Positions 7,050 to 14,303 of a DNA stretch of 34,663 bases are shown here, piece after piece. The DNA lies in UHGV virus genome UHGV-0173140; one strand, given 5' to 3'. Source of the DNA: a virus. The notes beneath the pieces are model-generated. The model saw only the letters and a program-made list of their open reading frames with translations, had not been told where the DNA came from and did no database searches. Position 1 is the stretch's first letter; every line of letters begins with the position of its first letter. A program made the translations under genes and the position numbers.

Positions 7050-8405
7050 TCAGTCGTCAATAGACGGTAATCCGTCCCCTGCTTTATCAATCCCCGTAAT
7101 TGGTAGACCCGCCTCTTTATATACGTATTCCTGAAGGTCTGGATCTGGGAATACAGGTGCGCCAGCTTGTGCAAGTCGTGCAAGTGCAGTGGTCAACGTT
7201 TCGATACTGTCTTTACTGATCGATCCGGCGCGAATCGACGGGCGGTATTCATCAGGAAATACGTTTAACGACCATAACTGCGGTATCAACTGACGATTAA
7301 CACATTCTACAATGCTGTCAATACGTGATTGCATTGCGCGGATCCACAGTTCAGTACGACTACCCAGATTAGCGTTATTCCCGGTATTACCACCCGTTCC
7401 GAAAAACATGAAATCTGCCAGTAATGCGCGAGCAATACTGGTATCCAGGCGTTTAATCGTCCGGTCAATATCCACAGAACTGGTCTGGTTAGGTGTAACG
7501 AATTCCAGTTTCACCTGTTGTTCACCACCATACGTGGTAACACCTGTTTCGTTATCATAACCCGTGATATACGGTTTAGAATAAATCACCAGTCCTGATT
7601 GTTCATTGCGTTTGATATTGGCAACAATGTTTTCATAATTATCAATCATCGCCTGTGCTGCCTGACGCTGTTGTTCAGGAACATTAGGGTCATTAGCCGC
7701 TTTCTTAATATCTGCGTTAACAGTAATTACCGGGAACCCTGTACCACGTTCGGCAAGTATGGATTCGATTTCCATATTCACTTTTTTGTAGTACCACGGA
7801 CGATAAGCTGTGCGCAGCAGTGATAAACCTTCCGGGTTACCTTTATTCGGACTTGAAATCAAATGAAGCGAACGGTCACGCGTGATTAACGTCGTTGTAC
7901 CCTGGTTAGGTGAACGTTGATAAATACCACGAACATAACCTGTCGGTTCTTCAATGTCCCAGCCAGCAAGCGTTTCAGGTGCTACAGGAACCAGACGGGC
8001 AATACCCACCGTGCCATCATCAAGGTCTTTCACCCAGATGTCATACCAACCCCAGCCAAACACATCAACGTCTGTCCATGTCTGAACGAACGCGGACCAG
8101 GTATCGTCCGGGAGTGCACCACGCGGATCACCCATTTTATTTTCAACAGCATCCTGTAACCATTCTGAATAACGAATAGCTTCTGGATCATCTTTGTCAG
8201 ACGGGTCAAAAATCCACTGTACAGAACGATAAACGCTACTCATAGCGAATAACACACCGCCAATAGTTTCGTCGTTCTCAGCCATCTGACGCAGAATACG
8301 ACGGCCTTGTTTACCGTTCAGCTTAGGAAGGAAATCGTCGTTTACCTGGTTGCCTGTTCGACTGTACCCGGCAACGGCTAGTTGTTCGAATTGTTGATCA
8401 GCCAT
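7050..8405 (-). CDS. putative portal protein
   Basis: 451 aa; size and position between terL and the MuF-like gene on the same strand; no decisive motif, so the call is positional. Confidence 0.5.
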   Translation of the reverse strand: MADQQFEQLAVAGYSRTGNQVNDDFLPKLNGKQGRRILRQMAENDETIGGVLFAMSSVYRSVQWIFDPSDKDDPEAIRYSEWLQDAVENKMGDPRGALPDDTWSAFVQTWTDVDVFGWGWYDIWVKDLDDGTVGIARLVPVAPETLAGWDIEEPTGYVRGIYQRSPNQGTTTLITRDRSLHLISSPNKGNPEGLSLLRTAYRPWYYKKVNMEIESILAERGTGFPVITVNADIKKAANDPNVPEQQRQAAQAMIDNYENIVANIKRNEQSGLVIYSKPYITGYDNETGVTTYGGEQQVKLEFVTPNQTSSVDIDRTIKRLDTSIARALLADFMFFGTGGNTGNNANLGSRTELWIRAMQSRIDSIVECVNRQLIPQLWSLNVFPDEYRPSIRAGSISKDSIETLTTALARLAQAGAPVFPDPDLQEYVYKEAGLPITGIDKAGDGLPSIDD

Positions 8406-8475
8406 GTTCTACAGGCTCCATACGGTTTACGGTTCTTAACGTATGTTATATCAGTGATGGTTTTTTTGCACGGTG

Positions 8476-8517
8476 TTAAAATAATTCTTGACGGATTGCA
8501 AACGTACGATTATGCTT
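8476..8517 (+). promoter_or_regulatory. conserved promoter copy (TTGACG 8488-8493, -10 tatgct)
   Basis: gttaaaataattcttgacggattgcaaa; opposite strand carries TTGCAA facing the portal gene. Confidence 0.5.
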
Positions 8518-8547
8518 TAGTCATCAAATGAACGAAGGGTGATAACT

Positions 8548-8859
8548 ATGAAACCGAATGAAAATATTACACAACTGGATATTGCTTTTGGACCTAAAAA
8601 CATTGCTGAATTTCTCCCGGCGATGGGTAGTATTCCGAAAGAATTTTTCGAAAATTCTAACCCGTGGAATCAGTGGGTCAGCAAATGGTTTTTCAATGGT
8701 CTGAAAGAATACGCGGTTGCTGTTAAAGGTGTGGATTTTAAACAGGCCCACGCACACATCAGCGTGATTCTGGGTAGTTTCGAACCTAAACACGAACATA
8801 AAATTGCCGGGTGTGCATATCTTGCGTCAATGTGGTTTGTACCGGAGACAGTTAAATGA
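8548..8859 (+). CDS. hypothetical protein
   Basis: Track ORF 8539-8859; ATG at 8548. Confidence 0.45.
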   Translation: MKPNENITQLDIAFGPKNIAEFLPAMGSIPKEFFENSNPWNQWVSKWFFNGLKEYAVAVKGVDFKQAHAHISVILGSFEPKHEHKIAGCAYLASMWFVPETVK

Positions 8860-9191
8860 AAATAAATATGAGTAATGGTAAAGTAATAATTGACGGTAGG
8901 GAATTTACAGGACGTAAATTTGAAATTAACGGTGATAAAGTAATTGTTGATGGCATACAGGTTGATGGTAATCTGGTTGGTAACATATCGATCAGTGTTT
9001 ATGGTGATGTTGAATCCATTGAAACGACTAACGGTGAAGTTAACATTTCAGGAAACAGTGGAGATATCAAAACGGTTAATGGTAATGTTTCTGTTACTGG
9101 GGATAGCGGTAATATCAAAACAGTTAATGGAAATATTACTACAAAGTCATGTACTAATTCACATTCTATCAACGGTATCATCCGTAACTGA
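8856..9191 (+). CDS. repetitive beta-strand (beta-helix-like) protein
   Basis: Repeated G(D/N)-hydrophobic-alternating pattern: NGEVNISGNSGDIKTVNGNVSVTGDSGNIKTVNGNITT. Confidence 0.45.
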   Translation: MKINMSNGKVIIDGREFTGRKFEINGDKVIVDGIQVDGNLVGNISISVYGDVESIETTNGEVNISGNSGDIKTVNGNVSVTGDSGNIKTVNGNITTKSCTNSHSINGIIRN

Positions 9192-9203
9192 GGAAGAACA
9201 ATC

Positions 9204-9539
9204 ATGAACCATGTAAATGCTATTCGTTGTAATGATGAATATCAATGTTCGCATTGTGGTAAATCGTGGGATATCCACGAAGAAGCACCAGATTGTAAAA
9301 TGACACTGGCTAGTGCAGACGTGTATAAAACGGTCAATTATTTTGGTTTGTCTTTAACTGTTCCTGAAGATATTGACTATATAGCCACGAATAGTTACGG
9401 GGTTGTTTACGGGTATTTTAGTGAACCAGAACTCTGTGATGAATTTTGGGATAATCGTCGTTACGGTATCCCAAAAGTGAGGCTTGCAACTGTAAACCTA
9501 CACGGTCTGGACTGGACGGAGACTCTAAGAGAATGTTAA
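9204..9539 (+). CDS. hypothetical protein
   Basis: Track ORF with SD gaggaag; Cys-containing N-terminus. Confidence 0.45.
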   Translation: MNHVNAIRCNDEYQCSHCGKSWDIHEEAPDCKMTLASADVYKTVNYFGLSLTVPEDIDYIATNSYGVVYGYFSEPELCDEFWDNRRYGIPKVRLATVNLHGLDWTETLREC

Positions 9540-9699
9540 TTGGTTATGTACTGGTGCTTGTTCTGCATGGTGTGACTATTGAACCTGTGACAGAACGCAT
9601 CATGACGTTCGAACAGTGTCAGGGTGCGTTACAAGCTGAACAGGCTTACAACCCTGATAAAATTTACGGGTGTGCTGAAGTTTATCGGGACTAATAATT

Positions 9700-9975
9700 A
9701 TGGAATACATGTATATTGTTTTCTCACTTCTGTTAATGATTGTTGTCGTTATTACAACTGAGAAAAAAGAACAAGGGGTGATAGGGTTAGCAGTTGCTCT
9801 GATTCGTGTTCTTTCAATCATGTTGCTGGTAACCAGTTTTTCAATTGCTTTTGACATCGTAGAATTACAAAGCGATTATTACGGTTTTGTGAAACTTCAA
9901 CATCAGCTAACATACGCCGTCATATTCGGTTTAGGTTCTGTTAGCCTCGCTGTTCTTTCATCTTTCAGACGTTGA
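9700..9975 (+). CDS. small membrane protein (about 3 TM helices)
   Basis: Hydrophobic segments IVFSLLLMIVVVI, LAVALIRVLSIMLLV, AVIFGLGSVSLAVL. Confidence 0.5.
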   Translation: MEYMYIVFSLLLMIVVVITTEKKEQGVIGLAVALIRVLSIMLLVTSFSIAFDIVELQSDYYGFVKLQHQLTYAVIFGLGSVSLAVLSSFRR

Positions 9976-10000
9976 AAAAAGCCCCGGACAGTTCCGGGGC
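9975..10000 (-). terminator. rho-independent terminator for the minus-strand operon (gccccgga-cagt-tccggggc, T-run on minus strand)
   Basis: Hairpin 9981-10000; plus-strand aaaaaa at 9975-9980 is the minus-strand U-tract. Confidence 0.6.
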
Positions 10001-10008
10001 AAAGTCGA

Positions 10009-10158
10009 TCAGTAAAACGTGAACGCGGAAAACTGTAATGGTACTATGAACGGACTGGTAAACCCTCTGAAAACGGCCTGAGTATGTGCAATCTGTGACT
10101 GAAGAAGACCAAATTGCGTAGCAGGACTTCCCAGACAACACGATGTTCTACAACACAT
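10009..10158 (-). CDS. small Cys-rich hypothetical peptide (49 aa)
   Basis: ATG with strong aaggggg SD; MCCRTSCCLGSPATQF...; lies between the last operon gene and the terminator. Confidence 0.3.
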   Translation of the reverse strand: MCCRTSCCLGSPATQFGLLQSQIAHTQAVFRGFTSPFIVPLQFSAFTFY

Positions 10159-10173
10159 AATAACCCCCTTTTT

Positions 10174-10428
10174 TTACGATTTTTCTGACTCTTTAAGACC
10201 TAAAACGGCAATTACTTTCACAGCGATACGTTGCGCCAGGTCTAACTGTTGCTGACTTAATTTCCCGGTAGTCATCACTGCCATGATCCCACTCATTGAA
10301 CCCAACGCTTTAAAATCGTTAAATGCCGACTTCATGATCACTTCTTGACTGTGACCTTCGTCTACGATTACGTGTGCGCGTAACCCCAGACTTTCGACTA
10401 CTTTGTCTACCCCTTCATTCTTCGTCAT
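10174..10428 (-). CDS. hypothetical protein
   Basis: Track ORF; last long gene of the minus-strand operon. Confidence 0.45.
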   Translation of the reverse strand: MTKNEGVDKVVESLGLRAHVIVDEGHSQEVIMKSAFNDFKALGSMSGIMAVMTTGKLSQQQLDLAQRIAVKVIAVLGLKESEKS

Positions 10429-10918
10429 CTTCGTTTACCTTATTTTTGGCTACTTTTGGTTGCTCACGAGGATCATTCATCGGGGGCCACGGGCTGATAT
10501 TTTCACGAGTTTCCACAGGTTCAGGTTCTGTACCTAAAAACTTACTGACAAATTCACCAGCAAAATGTGAAGTGTCGCTGACATAAACATGCATCCTGTC
10601 CAAATCAGCCTGACTAATTGAATTAGGTGCAATATTAATTTTAAATTGATGGAAACCAACATACATCACATTAACAGGTCGTTCGATTGTCCCCGGTGTC
10701 GGGGGAATCACACCCAAAATCCAACAGTAATGAAAACGACCATCACCCATCGGTTCACAACCAGCGTTAAGCCAGCTTACCTTCGGATGAGGAAACATTG
10801 TTGTTGAGTCAGTGGCATCCCGACGTAATGACCACTCCACACCACCAATGTTAATAGTGCTTCGCGGTTTCATACCGTTAAACTGGGTGACACCCATACC
10901 TGCGTTAATATTCTGCAT
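10415..10918 (-). CDS. hypothetical protein
   Basis: 167-aa track ORF; acidic C-terminal tail NEDDEE. Confidence 0.45.
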   Translation of the reverse strand: MQNINAGMGVTQFNGMKPRSTINIGGVEWSLRRDATDSTTMFPHPKVSWLNAGCEPMGDGRFHYCWILGVIPPTPGTIERPVNVMYVGFHQFKINIAPNSISQADLDRMHVYVSDTSHFAGEFVSKFLGTEPEPVETRENISPWPPMNDPREQPKVAKNKVNEDDEE

Positions 10919-10934
10919 GTCGGTTTCCTGTTAG

Positions 10935-11294
10935 TTACATCTTTTTAAGTGCGTGGATACAGGCTGCAGCCAGATCTGTTAGCTCTTTTTTAATACCAGA
11001 CGTCGAACCTTCGGTTTTTTCTTCCATCAGTTCGCGATATTCCATTTCAACAATGGACATCATCCCGCCGGGCTTATCGTGGTACGACGCCCAAGTCGAA
11101 GGAGGGTTATCCATACGTGCTTTAACATGGGCCATAACTGAACCATGTTCGCTAACAGAGCTATCATGATGAAATACTCCCATCGTGTCCGGGTGATGCC
11201 CGTGGTGATAATGATGGTGGTGATGAATTTCTACATCTTCCTCTTCATCGTCATCATCGTCTTTTTTGATAACGTAATACGGTTTGTAATGCAT
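10935..11294 (-). CDS. His-rich acidic protein
   Basis: KKDDDDDEEEDVEIHHHHHYHHGHHPD...FHHD; 119 aa. Confidence 0.5.
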   Translation of the reverse strand: MHYKPYYVIKKDDDDDEEEDVEIHHHHHYHHGHHPDTMGVFHHDSSVSEHGSVMAHVKARMDNPPSTWASYHDKPGGMMSIVEMEYRELMEEKTEGSTSGIKKELTDLAAACIHALKKM

Positions 11295-11344
11295 ACTCTC
11301 ATCTCCTGTTAAAGCGCCCCGTACAGAGGCGCTTAGTTGACCAA

Positions 11345-12043
11345 TTAGCAGCAGCCAGTCGGTGGAGTTTGCGGAGTAGGCAGCTTGAAGTTAATAAGCT
11401 GATCGACCTGGTTAATTTTGCACGCCAACTGAGACGTTTGTGACAATTGAGACAACTGGAAGTCACGGGTTTGAATCTGAGATTTCAGGTCACAAATCAG
11501 AACAGCCTGAGACTGTGCGAACTGGTCACGGATCAGTGCACGAGTTGCTTCCGCTTGACGTTCAATGTTCAGGTTGGTTTCGCAGCAACACTTCTCAGCC
11601 GCTAACTGTGCCTGGAAAGAACGAGTCAGTGCCGCAGTTTCAGATGCACAGATCGCATTGGTCACAGTGTTAGTACCCTGTTGAATCTGCGTGTTCAGAC
11701 CTGCAAAACCTTGAACGTTTGCCAGCAGGTTTTGTGTGTTCTGTTGGGTCAGACCGTTATAGGTAGAAGCTGCTGAGCGTTCAACAGTCAGGTTAGTACC
11801 ATTCTGACCCTGAATGTTAGCAAGTGACGCCGCATTAATAGCCTGAAGAATAGCGTTAGTATCCAGAGAGTTCTGAACAACAACACCTTCAGCAGCACCA
11901 ATACCACGACCACCCCAACCACCGCCACCACCCCAGCCATTACCGAACCAGGAACCGATAAGACCGCCGATACCACCACCAAGTGCAGCCGCGCCAGCTT
12001 CACCGCCGAAACCGCCAGTGGGAACTAAAGTCATGTCAGACAT
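11345..12043 (-). CDS. Gly-rich / Gln-Asn-Thr-rich protein with C-terminal Cys residues
   Basis: N-terminus GGFGGEAGAAALGGGIGGLIGSWFGNGWGGGGGWGGRG; C-terminus ends TGCC; aggag SD. Confidence 0.5.
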   Translation of the reverse strand: MSDMTLVPTGGFGGEAGAAALGGGIGGLIGSWFGNGWGGGGGWGGRGIGAAEGVVVQNSLDTNAILQAINAASLANIQGQNGTNLTVERSAASTYNGLTQQNTQNLLANVQGFAGLNTQIQQGTNTVTNAICASETAALTRSFQAQLAAEKCCCETNLNIERQAEATRALIRDQFAQSQAVLICDLKSQIQTRDFQLSQLSQTSQLACKINQVDQLINFKLPTPQTPPTGCC

Positions 12044-12050
12044 GTTGAAA

Positions 12051-12101
12051 CTCCTGTGAGAGAATGTTAATTAACTGTAACCGATCGGTTACTTACAGGA
12101 G
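12051..12101 (-). promoter_or_regulatory. 5' leader stem-loop able to sequester the SD of the Gly-rich gene; contains 16-bp perfect palindrome gtaaccgatcggttac (12077-12092)
   Basis: Arms ctcctgt (12051-12057) and acaggag (12095-12101) are complementary; one arm carries the aggag SD. Confidence 0.4.
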
Positions 12102-12127
12102 TATAAACGCGTTACATTAATCTAACA

Positions 12128-12175
12128 GATAATTTACAAACATTTATAATGTAATTTGTCAAGAATTAAAAAAGA
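12128..12175 (-). promoter_or_regulatory. conserved promoter copy, minus strand (TTGACA; reverse complement of 12157-12162)
   Basis: Reverse complement reads ttttttaattcttgacaaattacat; -10 element uncertain. Confidence 0.45.
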
Positions 12176-12205: not shown

Positions 12206-13969
12206 TTAAAAAATGTCACCGTATTCAGGAGTACCAACAGGATTCACACCACCAGTAAATGGTTCTTCAACGAATTCGGTACGTTTTGGTGATAGTGCAA
12301 TAACCGCAGCATCGAAAAAGTTTGGCGACTTACTTCCATTTGGTTTTTTGTCGATCACAATCTTCCCGGCACCGTTACTGGTATATGTTGGCTGACTTAA
12401 CTCAGCTTCTAACCGTTGTGCATTTTCCAGTGACGGATCAATCAGAATGATTTCGTCCGGATCCTGTGGTTGACCTTCCACATACCATTTATAAATTCGC
12501 TGACATCGCAGACGTAACGCCCACGATGCCTGTGCTTTATAATTTGAAAAATAATCTTTGTTTGATTTACGGTCTTTGTCACCAGGTTTCGTACCACCGA
12601 TAATATCACCGCCCGGATCCACAACTTTTCCATTCGGTAACCACGGGCGCACACGGAAGCGTAAAGTATCTTTCCGGTCGTTTGCCGCTACTTTAACGCC
12701 TGTACCAACACCGTTAACTTCGTACCAGTATTCATCAACACCCAGCATATTAGCCATCGTCAACATCCCTGGTGCAGCCAGTTCAGCGCCCCTGTGGTCA
12801 AGCTGCAAATGTGTCAGGAATACACCGTGAGCAATTACCAGTGCGCTTGCGTCTTCACCACCGTCTGCGGCATCCTGTCCGGCGATACGTTGACCTGTTG
12901 GTGTAAGTAGTCCGTTAGCTTTACGCCATTCTGTGTCACGGAAAGCATCAAAAGCAGCGCGCACCCATTCAGCTTTAATCAGTACACCCTGAACAGCAGC
13001 GGCATAATCGCGGTCAACTTCCTGTGCGAAAATATGCTGTAAACCTTTTTCAGCGAACGATTGTTTTTCTCGTTTATACCATTCGTCGTCTTTAGCCGGG
13101 TGATCACGCCAGTCCAGAACCATGACACGCAATTTACCACGGGGTAATTTCTTACCCGGTTCCCATTCCAAACCAGCTTTACGATTACGATAAAAAACGT
13201 TACCAACACCGTTAACTGAACTGATGTCGATACGAACGTTGGTGTTAGCTGACAATGACGCTTCAATCAGTTCAGGACGATCTACGTGTGCCGCTTCATC
13301 CAAGAAATAGACAGACTTACGACCACCACGACCAATATTGTCACCAGCTTCACCAGTAATTGTTGCACCGTTTTCTGGGTTGATACATTTCATGTAAACC
13401 AGATGGTCTTTTTCACGCAGACCAACAGGACGTAATTCCGGTGGTAATGCGCGAATAATCTGGCGAATCTTTTCAAAAATACTATCAGGGTCGCCCAGCT
13501 TATCGACAAGCTGTTCTTTACGTGAACCCCAGCCAACTGAAGAACCAGGACGATACAGCCACGCCCACACGGACAAACCACAGGCTACCCAGGTCGCGCC
13601 ATAATCTCGCGATTTTTCCCAAAGCCCTTTTTCTTTGTCTTCAAGTGCTTCATAAACAAACTGAACCATGTCAATCTGACGTTCGAAAAGGCAGAAAGGC
13701 ATGTTGGGTGGATATTCAGTACCAACATTACGCGGGTCATAAGTAAACGCCCAGTCCAGAATGAACGCTACCGGGTTTGTTTCGTAATATTTTTTCAATA
13801 CCGGGACAATTGCCCGATCCGTGCGCATACGATTTAACAGGTTAATACGGTCAATGTAACACTGTTTGTAATCCGGTCGTGGCTGACCTTTTCGCCAGAT
13901 ACGTTCGTCATTTGCGTAGGCATCACGCCAGCGCGTGTAATTATGAACATTTCCAGTAAACTTATTCAT
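12206..13969 (-). CDS. terL: terminase large subunit
   Basis: Walker A-like KSRDYGAT, Walker B VYFLDEAAH and a C-terminal nuclease-like region; start set at MNKFTG (13969) because the longer track ORF (to 14194) would run through the plus-strand promoter at 14032. Confidence 0.8.
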   Translation of the reverse strand: MNKFTGNVHNYTRWRDAYANDERIWRKGQPRPDYKQCYIDRINLLNRMRTDRAIVPVLKKYYETNPVAFILDWAFTYDPRNVGTEYPPNMPFCLFERQIDMVQFVYEALEDKEKGLWEKSRDYGATWVACGLSVWAWLYRPGSSVGWGSRKEQLVDKLGDPDSIFEKIRQIIRALPPELRPVGLREKDHLVYMKCINPENGATITGEAGDNIGRGGRKSVYFLDEAAHVDRPELIEASLSANTNVRIDISSVNGVGNVFYRNRKAGLEWEPGKKLPRGKLRVMVLDWRDHPAKDDEWYKREKQSFAEKGLQHIFAQEVDRDYAAAVQGVLIKAEWVRAAFDAFRDTEWRKANGLLTPTGQRIAGQDAADGGEDASALVIAHGVFLTHLQLDHRGAELAAPGMLTMANMLGVDEYWYEVNGVGTGVKVAANDRKDTLRFRVRPWLPNGKVVDPGGDIIGGTKPGDKDRKSNKDYFSNYKAQASWALRLRCQRIYKWYVEGQPQDPDEIILIDPSLENAQRLEAELSQPTYTSNGAGKIVIDKKPNGSKSPNFFDAAVIALSPKRTEFVEEPFTGGVNPVGTPEYGDIF

Positions 13970-14031
13970 GATTATCGGTCCGTTTGTAACTATTCTGTAC
14001 AGTTTACCACGGGTGATTGGTGGTGACAGAG

Positions 14032-14074
14032 ATTTAAAATAATTCTTGATAGATTGCTCATGTATCTGTATAGT
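14032..14074 (+). promoter_or_regulatory. conserved promoter copy (TTGATA 14045-14050, -10 tatagt 14068-14073)
   Basis: gatttaaaataattcttgatagattgc; followed by a ~220-nt leader. Confidence 0.5.
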
Positions 14075-14303
14075 TGTTGTCATAGACAAGATACCTGACC
14101 AAGTATGTAGTAACCCGGAATTGTCCGGCTGAAGATACCGCTGATTGTCAGGCGCTACGGTGAGTATAAAGCGTAACTCACCCCACGAAATCACACACTA
14201 TGCATCATCTGGTTGGATGGTGGTTCCTGCGGGGATTGTGAAATTAGTTGCGACGGGTTGAAGAGATATCTTGTCACTAAACAAAAACAAGAGGGTCGTG
14301 AGT

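Follow-up and report, generated by a model that had tools for sequence, protein, structure and literature searches.

A small all-beta repeat protein in an exchangeable slot of a 9NA-like siphophage genome and its distant likeness to Toastrack repeats

The virus genome UHGV-0173140, analysed here over its entire stretch of 34,663 nucleotides (the window), is that of a 9NA-like siphophage (Nonanavirus/Sashavirus) and encodes at 8856-9191 on the plus strand a small protein built of short beta repeats, which is the subject of this analysis. According to the list of open reading frames (ORFs) and the sequence itself, the gene starts with ATG and specifies, stop codon included, a protein of 111 amino acids (aa) with the sequence MKINMSNGKVIIDGREFTGRKFEINGDKVIVDGIQVDGNLVGNISISVYGDVESIETTNGEVNISGNSGDIKTVNGNVSVTGDSGNIKTVNGNITTKSCTNSHSINGIIRN. 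The ATG shares bases with the TGA of the upstream gene in an ATGA overlap, which suggests translational coupling of the two genes. Isoleucine, asparagine and glycine account for 14.4% of the residues each and valine for 10.8%. No hydrophobic segment is present in the 111 aa (the maximal Kyte-Doolittle mean over 15 aa is 0.9) and only two of 259 relatives possess one; the protein is most likely soluble. The features of the locus are collected in Table 1.

Table 1. Location of the beta-repeat gene, its subdomains and the surrounding elements in the window
Feature	Position	Strand	Description
Coding sequence of the beta-repeat protein	8856..9191	+	Member of PHROG 3163
Ribosome-binding site GGAG	8843..8846	+	9 nucleotides ahead of the ATG; read from the sequence
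N-terminal subdomain, aa 1-44	8856..8987	+	Short strands with two-residue DG/GR/GD turns; DSSP of the structural model
About 3.75 tandem 16-residue repeats	9009..9188	+	aa 52-67, 68-83, 84-99 and a shortened unit 100-111
Exchanged cassette	8861..9194	+	334 base pairs in place of 854 base pairs (three small ORFs) of AVIO78A; blastn
Five-gene operon	8548..9975	+	In order: PHROG 36680 gene, beta-repeat gene, PHROG 1972, PHROG 16556 and PHROG 15669 genes
Candidate sigma-70-like promoter TTGACG-N17-TATGCT	8488..8516	+	Consensus scan, 9/12 matches
Terminator-like GC-rich hairpin with T-run on the minus strand	9981..10000	-	Terminator scan and sequence

The gene is flanked by DNA with approximately 95% identity to the Escherichia phages AVIO78A and KarinMuster_Bas82 and the Salmonella phage Sasha. 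In the blastn comparison with AVIO78A, an identity of 94-96% extends up to position 8860 and resumes from position 9195; the three AVIO78A ORFs in the slot are unrelated to the beta-repeat gene and belong to PHROGs 2650 and 1273, for which a function is unassigned. KarinMuster, Sasha, 9NA and SP069 each harbour other small ORFs in the same place, and the slot, which follows the operon's first gene, is an exchange hot spot. The beta-repeat gene is absent from the closest named relatives in the phage collection, in which the best tblastn match is found in Citrobacter phage K1M (55%) and all matches stay below 60% identity. The GC content of the gene is low at 33.6% (24% at third codon positions, GC3); the window as a whole has 43.9%, and the two operon neighbours have 41% and 40%. 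One metagenomic viral contig from this lineage has a copy with 98% identity in the corresponding position; retrieval of loci by the single protein delivered one sibling phage among viral contigs and none among GTDB genomes. Judged from these sequence comparisons, the gene is a dispensable, horizontally exchanged accessory cassette consisting of a single gene. Movement of single-gene cassettes through accessory hot spots is typical of host-takeover and counter-defence genes, and the sibling phages with different cassettes in one slot constitute a natural experiment.

The protein is a direct member of PHROG 3163 (E 4e-19, 69.7 bits, aa 2-99 versus profile positions 8-106 of 121), a phage family without assigned function. 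An exhaustive phmmer search with a threshold of E <= 1e-3 recovered 648 cluster representatives, nearly all of them 100-150 aa in length, a number which, with clusters formed at 50% identity, is a lower bound; in a profile search, clustering at 90% identity gave 1474 clusters or more, and a precomputed Pfam domain is recorded for none of them. Named members among these 1474 clusters are nearly all 'hypothetical', with one source naming a member after YvlB. Mainly stand-alone proteins of 110-150 aa, the relatives occur in siphoviruses, podoviruses, large myoviruses, prophages (Pseudomonas) and phage-plasmid-like replicons, with Klebsiella, Vibrio, Aeromonas, Erwinia, Acinetobacter, Escherichia, Yersinia and Fusobacterium as hosts of the phages. 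Matches on plasmids are all annotated as hypothetical proteins, and E. coli genomes contain no DNA match. A stretch of 7-10 conserved columns is not present in the family alignments. One candidate homolog (P0004), a surface protein of 2321 aa with many tandem repeats of ~95 residues, was judged a false positive with its 15 weak repeat matches.

An explanation of the ORF as a chance reading frame or the decaying remnant of a gene might draw on the AT-rich DNA, the simple composition and the lack of an annotated function. However, homologs that are diverged but equal in length number in the hundreds and share conserved structural positions, the copy in a second phage contig is preserved at the same site, the ribosome-binding site is good with the start coupled to the upstream gene, and the structure is predicted with confidence; this explanation is thus effectively refuted, with a probability close to nil, and the ORF is confirmed to be real. 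Two ORFs inside the gene on the opposite strand, 8852-8986 (-) and 8999-9205 (-), look 'conserved' in the neighbour clustering of loci, which is put down to the conserved repeat gene on the other strand and not taken as a sign of antisense genes.

A preliminary description of this DNA had located a 111-aa ORF with short repeats at 8856-9191, and not only are these coordinates exact but also the repetition exceeds chance. Upon comparison with 500 composition-preserving shuffles, BLOSUM self-similarity reaches z = 4.0 at lag 16 and z = 3.2 at lag 19, with no signal at lags 5, 8, 10 and 20 (z = 1.1, -1.1, 1.2 and -1.2). By eye, the repeat units read VESIETTNGEVNISGN / SGDIKTVNGNVSVTGD / SGNIKTVNGNITTKSC / TNSHSINGIIRN; in the family alignment, the four units pair in register with an hhalign probability of 92-98%. 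The family consensus of the repeat unit is G-D-V-x-C/V-x-x-V-x-G-x-V-x-T-x-S, four copies of which follow the N-terminal consensus GxVxINGxxxxGxxIxIxxGxVxVDGV. Since Tandem Repeats Finder detects no tandem repeat on the DNA level in the region, the repeats of the protein are, as far as the sequence tells, ancient. Rfam contains no family that matches the region. The N-terminal subdomain (aa 1-44) is unrelated to the C-terminal repeats (hhalign 3.7%). Invariant or nearly invariant columns of the family are G14, G19, D32, G33, G50, T73, G76, G85, G92 and G107, with D32 and T73 as the only non-glycines. This restriction of conservation to glycines and buried hydrophobic positions points to a fold under structural constraint, as in a scaffold, rather than to the active site of an enzyme.

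The repeat length has consequences for the assignment to known repeat families. The preliminary description had put forward the pentapeptide-repeat families for comparison, which did not hold, as a period-5 signal is missing at lags 5, 10 and 20 and a Pfam match is lacking; by the period and by Pfam searches of the protein and its relatives, pentapeptide repeats (PF00805) were excluded. Pentapeptide-repeat proteins of the Qnr/MfpA type act as nucleic-acid mimics, and inhibition of a host DNA-binding enzyme or restriction system by such mimicry would suit a phage beta-solenoid that is small, mildly acidic with a pI of 5.2 and encoded in an accessory region. The preliminary description had also named a mimic as a possible role; known DNA mimics have strongly acidic surfaces. 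The net charge of the protein is, however, only -2.4, and the relatives show a median charge of -3 and pI values up to 11, which together with the missing pentapeptide features makes mimicry of DNA highly unlikely. The triple-stranded beta-helix of the T4 gp5 type, with its 8-residue VxGxxxxx repeat, was equally rejected (lag-8 z = -1.1; E 0.99 for the family profile versus 4jj2), and the label 'baseplate hub subunit and tail lysozyme' on the homolog of an Erwinia phage, for which this type of helix is the basis, was judged to be wrong. YqfC matches weakly over aa 1-33 (E 0.006, 16 bits versus a curated cut-off of 78), and 6 and 5 of the 66 relatives match YabP and YqfC, respectively; the likeness probably reflects the short beta-hairpin pattern G-x-[VI]-x-[VI]-x-G common to YabP/YqfC and this part of the phage protein, and not homology.

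The AlphaFold2 model, built on an alignment of 66 sequences, consists of beta strands only and is of high confidence (predicted local distance difference test score, pLDDT, 93.2; predicted template modelling score, pTM, 0.80). Residues 1-36 form short strands linked by two-residue turns, and from residue 45 onwards the strands are broken at 60, 76 and 92, thus every 16 residues, as would be expected of stacked coils. From this model we infer a parallel-solenoid geometry for the repeat half. The weak list of Foldseek neighbours in the PDB is mostly composed of parallel beta-helices and solenoids, namely FapC, antigen 43, bactofilin, ice-binding proteins, IcsA, hemolysin A and FwdC, and hence the view of a small beta-repeat protein that the preliminary description had taken stands. 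Nine matches at E <= 1e-3 were found in the viral structure library (BFVD). Phage homologs from this library superpose on the model with template modelling (TM) scores of 0.87-0.93, and proteins of the giant viruses Sylvanvirus, Fadolivirus and Klosneuvirus match it with E values of 1e-4 to 2e-8 and query TM-scores (TMq) of 0.56-0.69. The predicted fold, and possibly the family, may extend beyond phages. When the PDB sequences were searched with the protein itself, with the family profile or with the relative P0014, only chance-level matches resulted (6jsa, E 0.011-0.45; a capsid protein, E 0.039).

The resemblance to bactofilins (PF04519, formerly DUF583) suggested initially could not be upheld, as the Pfam model, hhalign to the solved domains and TM-scores all fail to support it. 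Neither the protein nor the family consensus matches Pfam Bactofilin at E <= 1, and the 3 of 66 relatives that do match have E values of at least 0.005 (best 0.0049). The family profile reaches an hhalign probability of 1.4% with BacA (2n3d residues 40-133) and of 2.7% with BacA and TtBac (6ria) combined, whereby this reference profile of two sequences only is limited in sensitivity, versus 97% with DUF4097. Foldseek TM-scores to 6ria, 6rib and 2n3d are 0.15-0.27. Bactofilins and the phage protein share small size, stacked beta repeats and glycines at the turns; they differ in repeat length and motif, and the disordered terminal tails are lacking in the phage protein. On sequence grounds, membership among the bactofilins is not supported. 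A bactofilin-like cytoskeletal role, in which beta-helical subunits would build filaments in the infected cell by end-to-end polymerisation, goes back to the preliminary description and would be in line with a small, all-beta protein of stacked repeats, with the weak Pfam matches of the three relatives, with the bactofilin structures in the Foldseek list and with a viral-library neighbour named 'Bactofilin [Myoviridae sp. ctPuP5]' (E 5.5e-6, TMq 0.56). This name is, however, an automatic label, and the N-terminal 44 residues have the look of a separate cap, by which one end would be closed to polymerisation, so that with the failed comparisons above such a polymer is considered very improbable.

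On the other hand, the repeat half appears to be distantly related to the beta-helical repeats of Toastrack (DUF4097/PF13349), a group that covers DUF4097 with DUF2807 and DUF2154 and has as examples YvlB, LiaG and the C-terminus of LiaF in B. subtilis and the structure PDB 4QRK. Thirteen of the 66 relatives match Pfam DUF4097 at E < 0.1 (best 1.1e-5), and P0014 scores 23.1 bits versus the gathering score of 22.9 over model positions 79-168 of 247; the NCBIfam models LiaG and LiaX match weakly. In the comparison of the family with 46 PF13349-labelled proteins, hhalign gave a probability of 97.2% (E 4e-11, 56 columns, aa 42-97 of the window protein), and 97.4% for the C-terminal half alone. As controls, the score of the real profile was 69.6, of the reversed profile 31 and of eight column shuffles at most 13.5. 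Toastrack and the phage protein both consist of repeated beta-strand units with the motif T-x-S-G-D-[IV], and both are all-beta, without transmembrane segments and without conserved residues of the catalytic type, and presumably cytoplasmic. Unlike Toastrack, the phage protein is stand-alone and carried by phages, and with 111 aa it has less than half the length of the 247-position Pfam model. Toastrack is furthermore characterised by an N-terminal seven-stranded intertwined region (PMC11237479), which aa 1-44 do not provide; this part shows no similarity to the DUF4097 profile (hhalign 2.5%). PspC, LiaI-LiaF-TM, SHOCT-like and helix-turn-helix fusions or neighbours, the contexts in which Toastrack is found (PMC11237479), occur neither in the family nor in 14 loci. 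On the profile comparisons, we regard the protein as a distant variant of the Toastrack repeat, shortened and free-standing, rather than as a DUF4097 member.

Tentatively, and with a little less than even confidence, the protein is read as a soluble, cytoplasmic, non-enzymatic scaffold or decoy that binds protein and is made during infection. This reading draws on the accessory positions of the gene, the solubility, the absence of catalytic-type conservation and the Toastrack-like repeat; as bacterial Toastrack domains have been proposed as protein-docking platforms or surfaces (PMC11237479), docking suggests itself as the role. The N-terminal 44 residues would form a cap rich in beta-hairpins and the remainder of the protein approximately four stacked 16-residue coils. 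Produced in the cytoplasm of the infected cell, the protein could attach by the flat beta-sheet faces of the solenoid to another protein, for which a host factor is the most likely candidate, and sequester or modulate it; this might serve host takeover or counter-defence. Cytoplasmic location, binding function and target are what we infer for this protein.

The genomic contexts of the homologs, all of them phage or prophage where examined, bear on this reading. Across 14 loci no neighbour gene is conserved, which suggests that the protein acts on its own, and PADLOC models of defence systems do not match. In Pseudomonas prophages the homolog is the neighbour of xis/int where the early operon ends. 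One of these homologs (L010 2242-2595) shares its arm with a gene for a YafO toxin and a weak match to the Acb2/Tad1 hairpin, and such an arm fits an accessory or counter-defence region. In large myoviruses, homologs are located among small genes near rIIA/rIIB, endolysin, ligase or NAPRTase; in rV5-like Vequintavirinae phages (L014 2983-3336, L015 1414-1833) the homolog lies directly upstream of an endolysin/cell-wall hydrolase gene, and in the Erwinia phage among them this hydrolase gene is followed by one small ORF and then rIIA/rIIB. TL-2011b contains the homolog as a lone gene on the opposite strand beside the terminase. A paper linking Toastrack or DUF4097 to phage genes was not found in the literature search.

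Several points weigh against the scaffold or decoy reading and the Toastrack likeness it builds upon. The window protein and the family consensus do not match Pfam DUF4097 at E <= 1, and the profile similarity, real as it is on the level of sequence profiles, is confined to the repeat motif T-x-S-G-D-[IV] over 56 columns. As the reversed control still reaches 31, part of the match score is periodicity. The 46 DUF4097 proteins, which carry a precomputed PF13349 label, were retrieved with an artificial motif-rich seed; an artificial DUF4097-like query against the PDB sequences retrieved no solved Toastrack chain. The coil comprises 16 residues as compared to 18-19 in the DUF4097 proteins read, and a membrane-anchor partner is not present. 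Foldseek against the PDB gave nothing significant (best E 0.26, TM <= 0.36), and the Toastrack reference 4qrk is not among the best 50 of 67 matches, as listed; this negative carries little weight, since a genuine DUF4097 model used as positive control reaches 4qrk only at E 0.01 with a TMq of 0.37. On the level of predicted structures, the matches in giant viruses of eukaryotes argue against a bacteria-specific target. Finally, Yersinia phage fHe-Yen8-01 encodes a homolog with 37% identity (E 1e-9) that bears the annotation 'particle associated protein'; it is surrounded by further genes of this kind and directly precedes the tail fiber gene.

This last observation would suit a minor virion-associated protein, which decorates or chaperones a component of the tail or fibre or is carried in the particle and delivered with it. 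Beta-helices are common in phage fibres, and terminase or portal genes are close to the gene not only in the window but also in TL-2011b and Citrobacter phage K1M. Yet in the window the structural genes occupy the other strand, and the gene itself belongs to an operon headed by a sigma-70-like promoter. The closest relatives assemble the same virion and lack the gene, and in the majority of other phages and prophages it resides among early or accessory genes. Furthermore, a paper on fHe-Yen8-01 that would give the basis of the annotation was not found in the literature search. Residence in the virion is therefore regarded as unlikely.

A more specific version of the preferred scaffold or decoy reading, together with a variation of the filament, can be formulated, with a prospect that is slim. 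The protein might be a free-standing 'mini-Toastrack' decoy that copies a docking surface of the Psp/Lia type, or of another beta-solenoid platform, or else a phage beta-solenoid that assembles with itself into filaments. As a decoy, it would titrate partners of envelope-stress scaffolds, whereby the stress or defence response of the host would be blunted or redirected by diverse phages. If true, either decoy or filament would endow the family with its first function; its protein clusters, of which there are over 1000, come from phages, prophages, phage-plasmids and possibly giant viruses. The probability left after the readings given here is reserved for functions not considered. The family is already catalogued as PHROG 3163, yet without a Pfam model, and the new element is the link to the Toastrack repeat, which leads to the concrete and testable idea of a protein-docking scaffold or decoy. 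On the present evidence it is one more well-folded phage protein of unassigned function and would not surprise specialists.

The operon that contains the gene has the portal gene (7050-8405, -) on one side and, on the other, a series of minus strand genes ending in the large terminase (12206-14194); PHROG matches confirm portal and terminase, and the other nearby genes are PHROGs or ORFs without assigned function. Directly downstream of the beta-repeat gene, 9204-9539 (+) encodes another protein of 111 aa with an N-terminal CxxC...C motif, which belongs to PHROG 1972, matches the Pfam 'double zinc ribbon' weakly (E 7.6e-4) and is kept in most relatives. The fourth gene codes for 53 aa (PHROG 16556) and the last one (9700-9975, +) for a strongly hydrophobic protein of 91 aa (PHROG 15669), the Sasha ortholog of which is annotated with three transmembrane segments.

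On consensus alone, the candidate promoter element is an unremarkable sequence. The intergenic region 8406-8547, however, hardly varies among seven 9NA-like phages and is more conserved than the surrounding coding DNA; the seven include the more distant 9NA and SP069, with flanks that match the window at only ~86-87%. The -35 hexamer is invariant in the seven phages and the -10 hexamer nearly so. Because of this near-invariance, 8406-8547 is likely a functional promoter region of the host type, probably a divergent one, or another regulatory element. The label of an early-promoter gene, which had been given in the preliminary description, and thus early expression, are plausible in the light of these sequence features. 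At the other end, the terminator-like hairpin divides the plus strand operon from the converging minus strand genes, and terminators are annotated at the equivalent position in AVIO78A and Sasha.

Beyond the operon, the sibling viral contig, otherwise collinear at ~95%, lacks 10077-12174 (~2.1 kb) with the minus strand genes 10174-12043, which encode four proteins of PHROGs 7239, 8329, 9157 and 9288 with unassigned function. One of them (10935-11294, -; 119 aa) contains the acidic run DDDDDEEED followed by the histidine run HHHHHYHHGHH. Another (11345-12043, -; 232 aa) is composed of a glycine-rich N-terminus, GGFGGEAGAAALGGGIGG...GWGGGGGWGG, a Q/N-rich middle part and the C-terminus ...PTGCC, and matches weakly a PHROG annotated as 'virion structural protein'.

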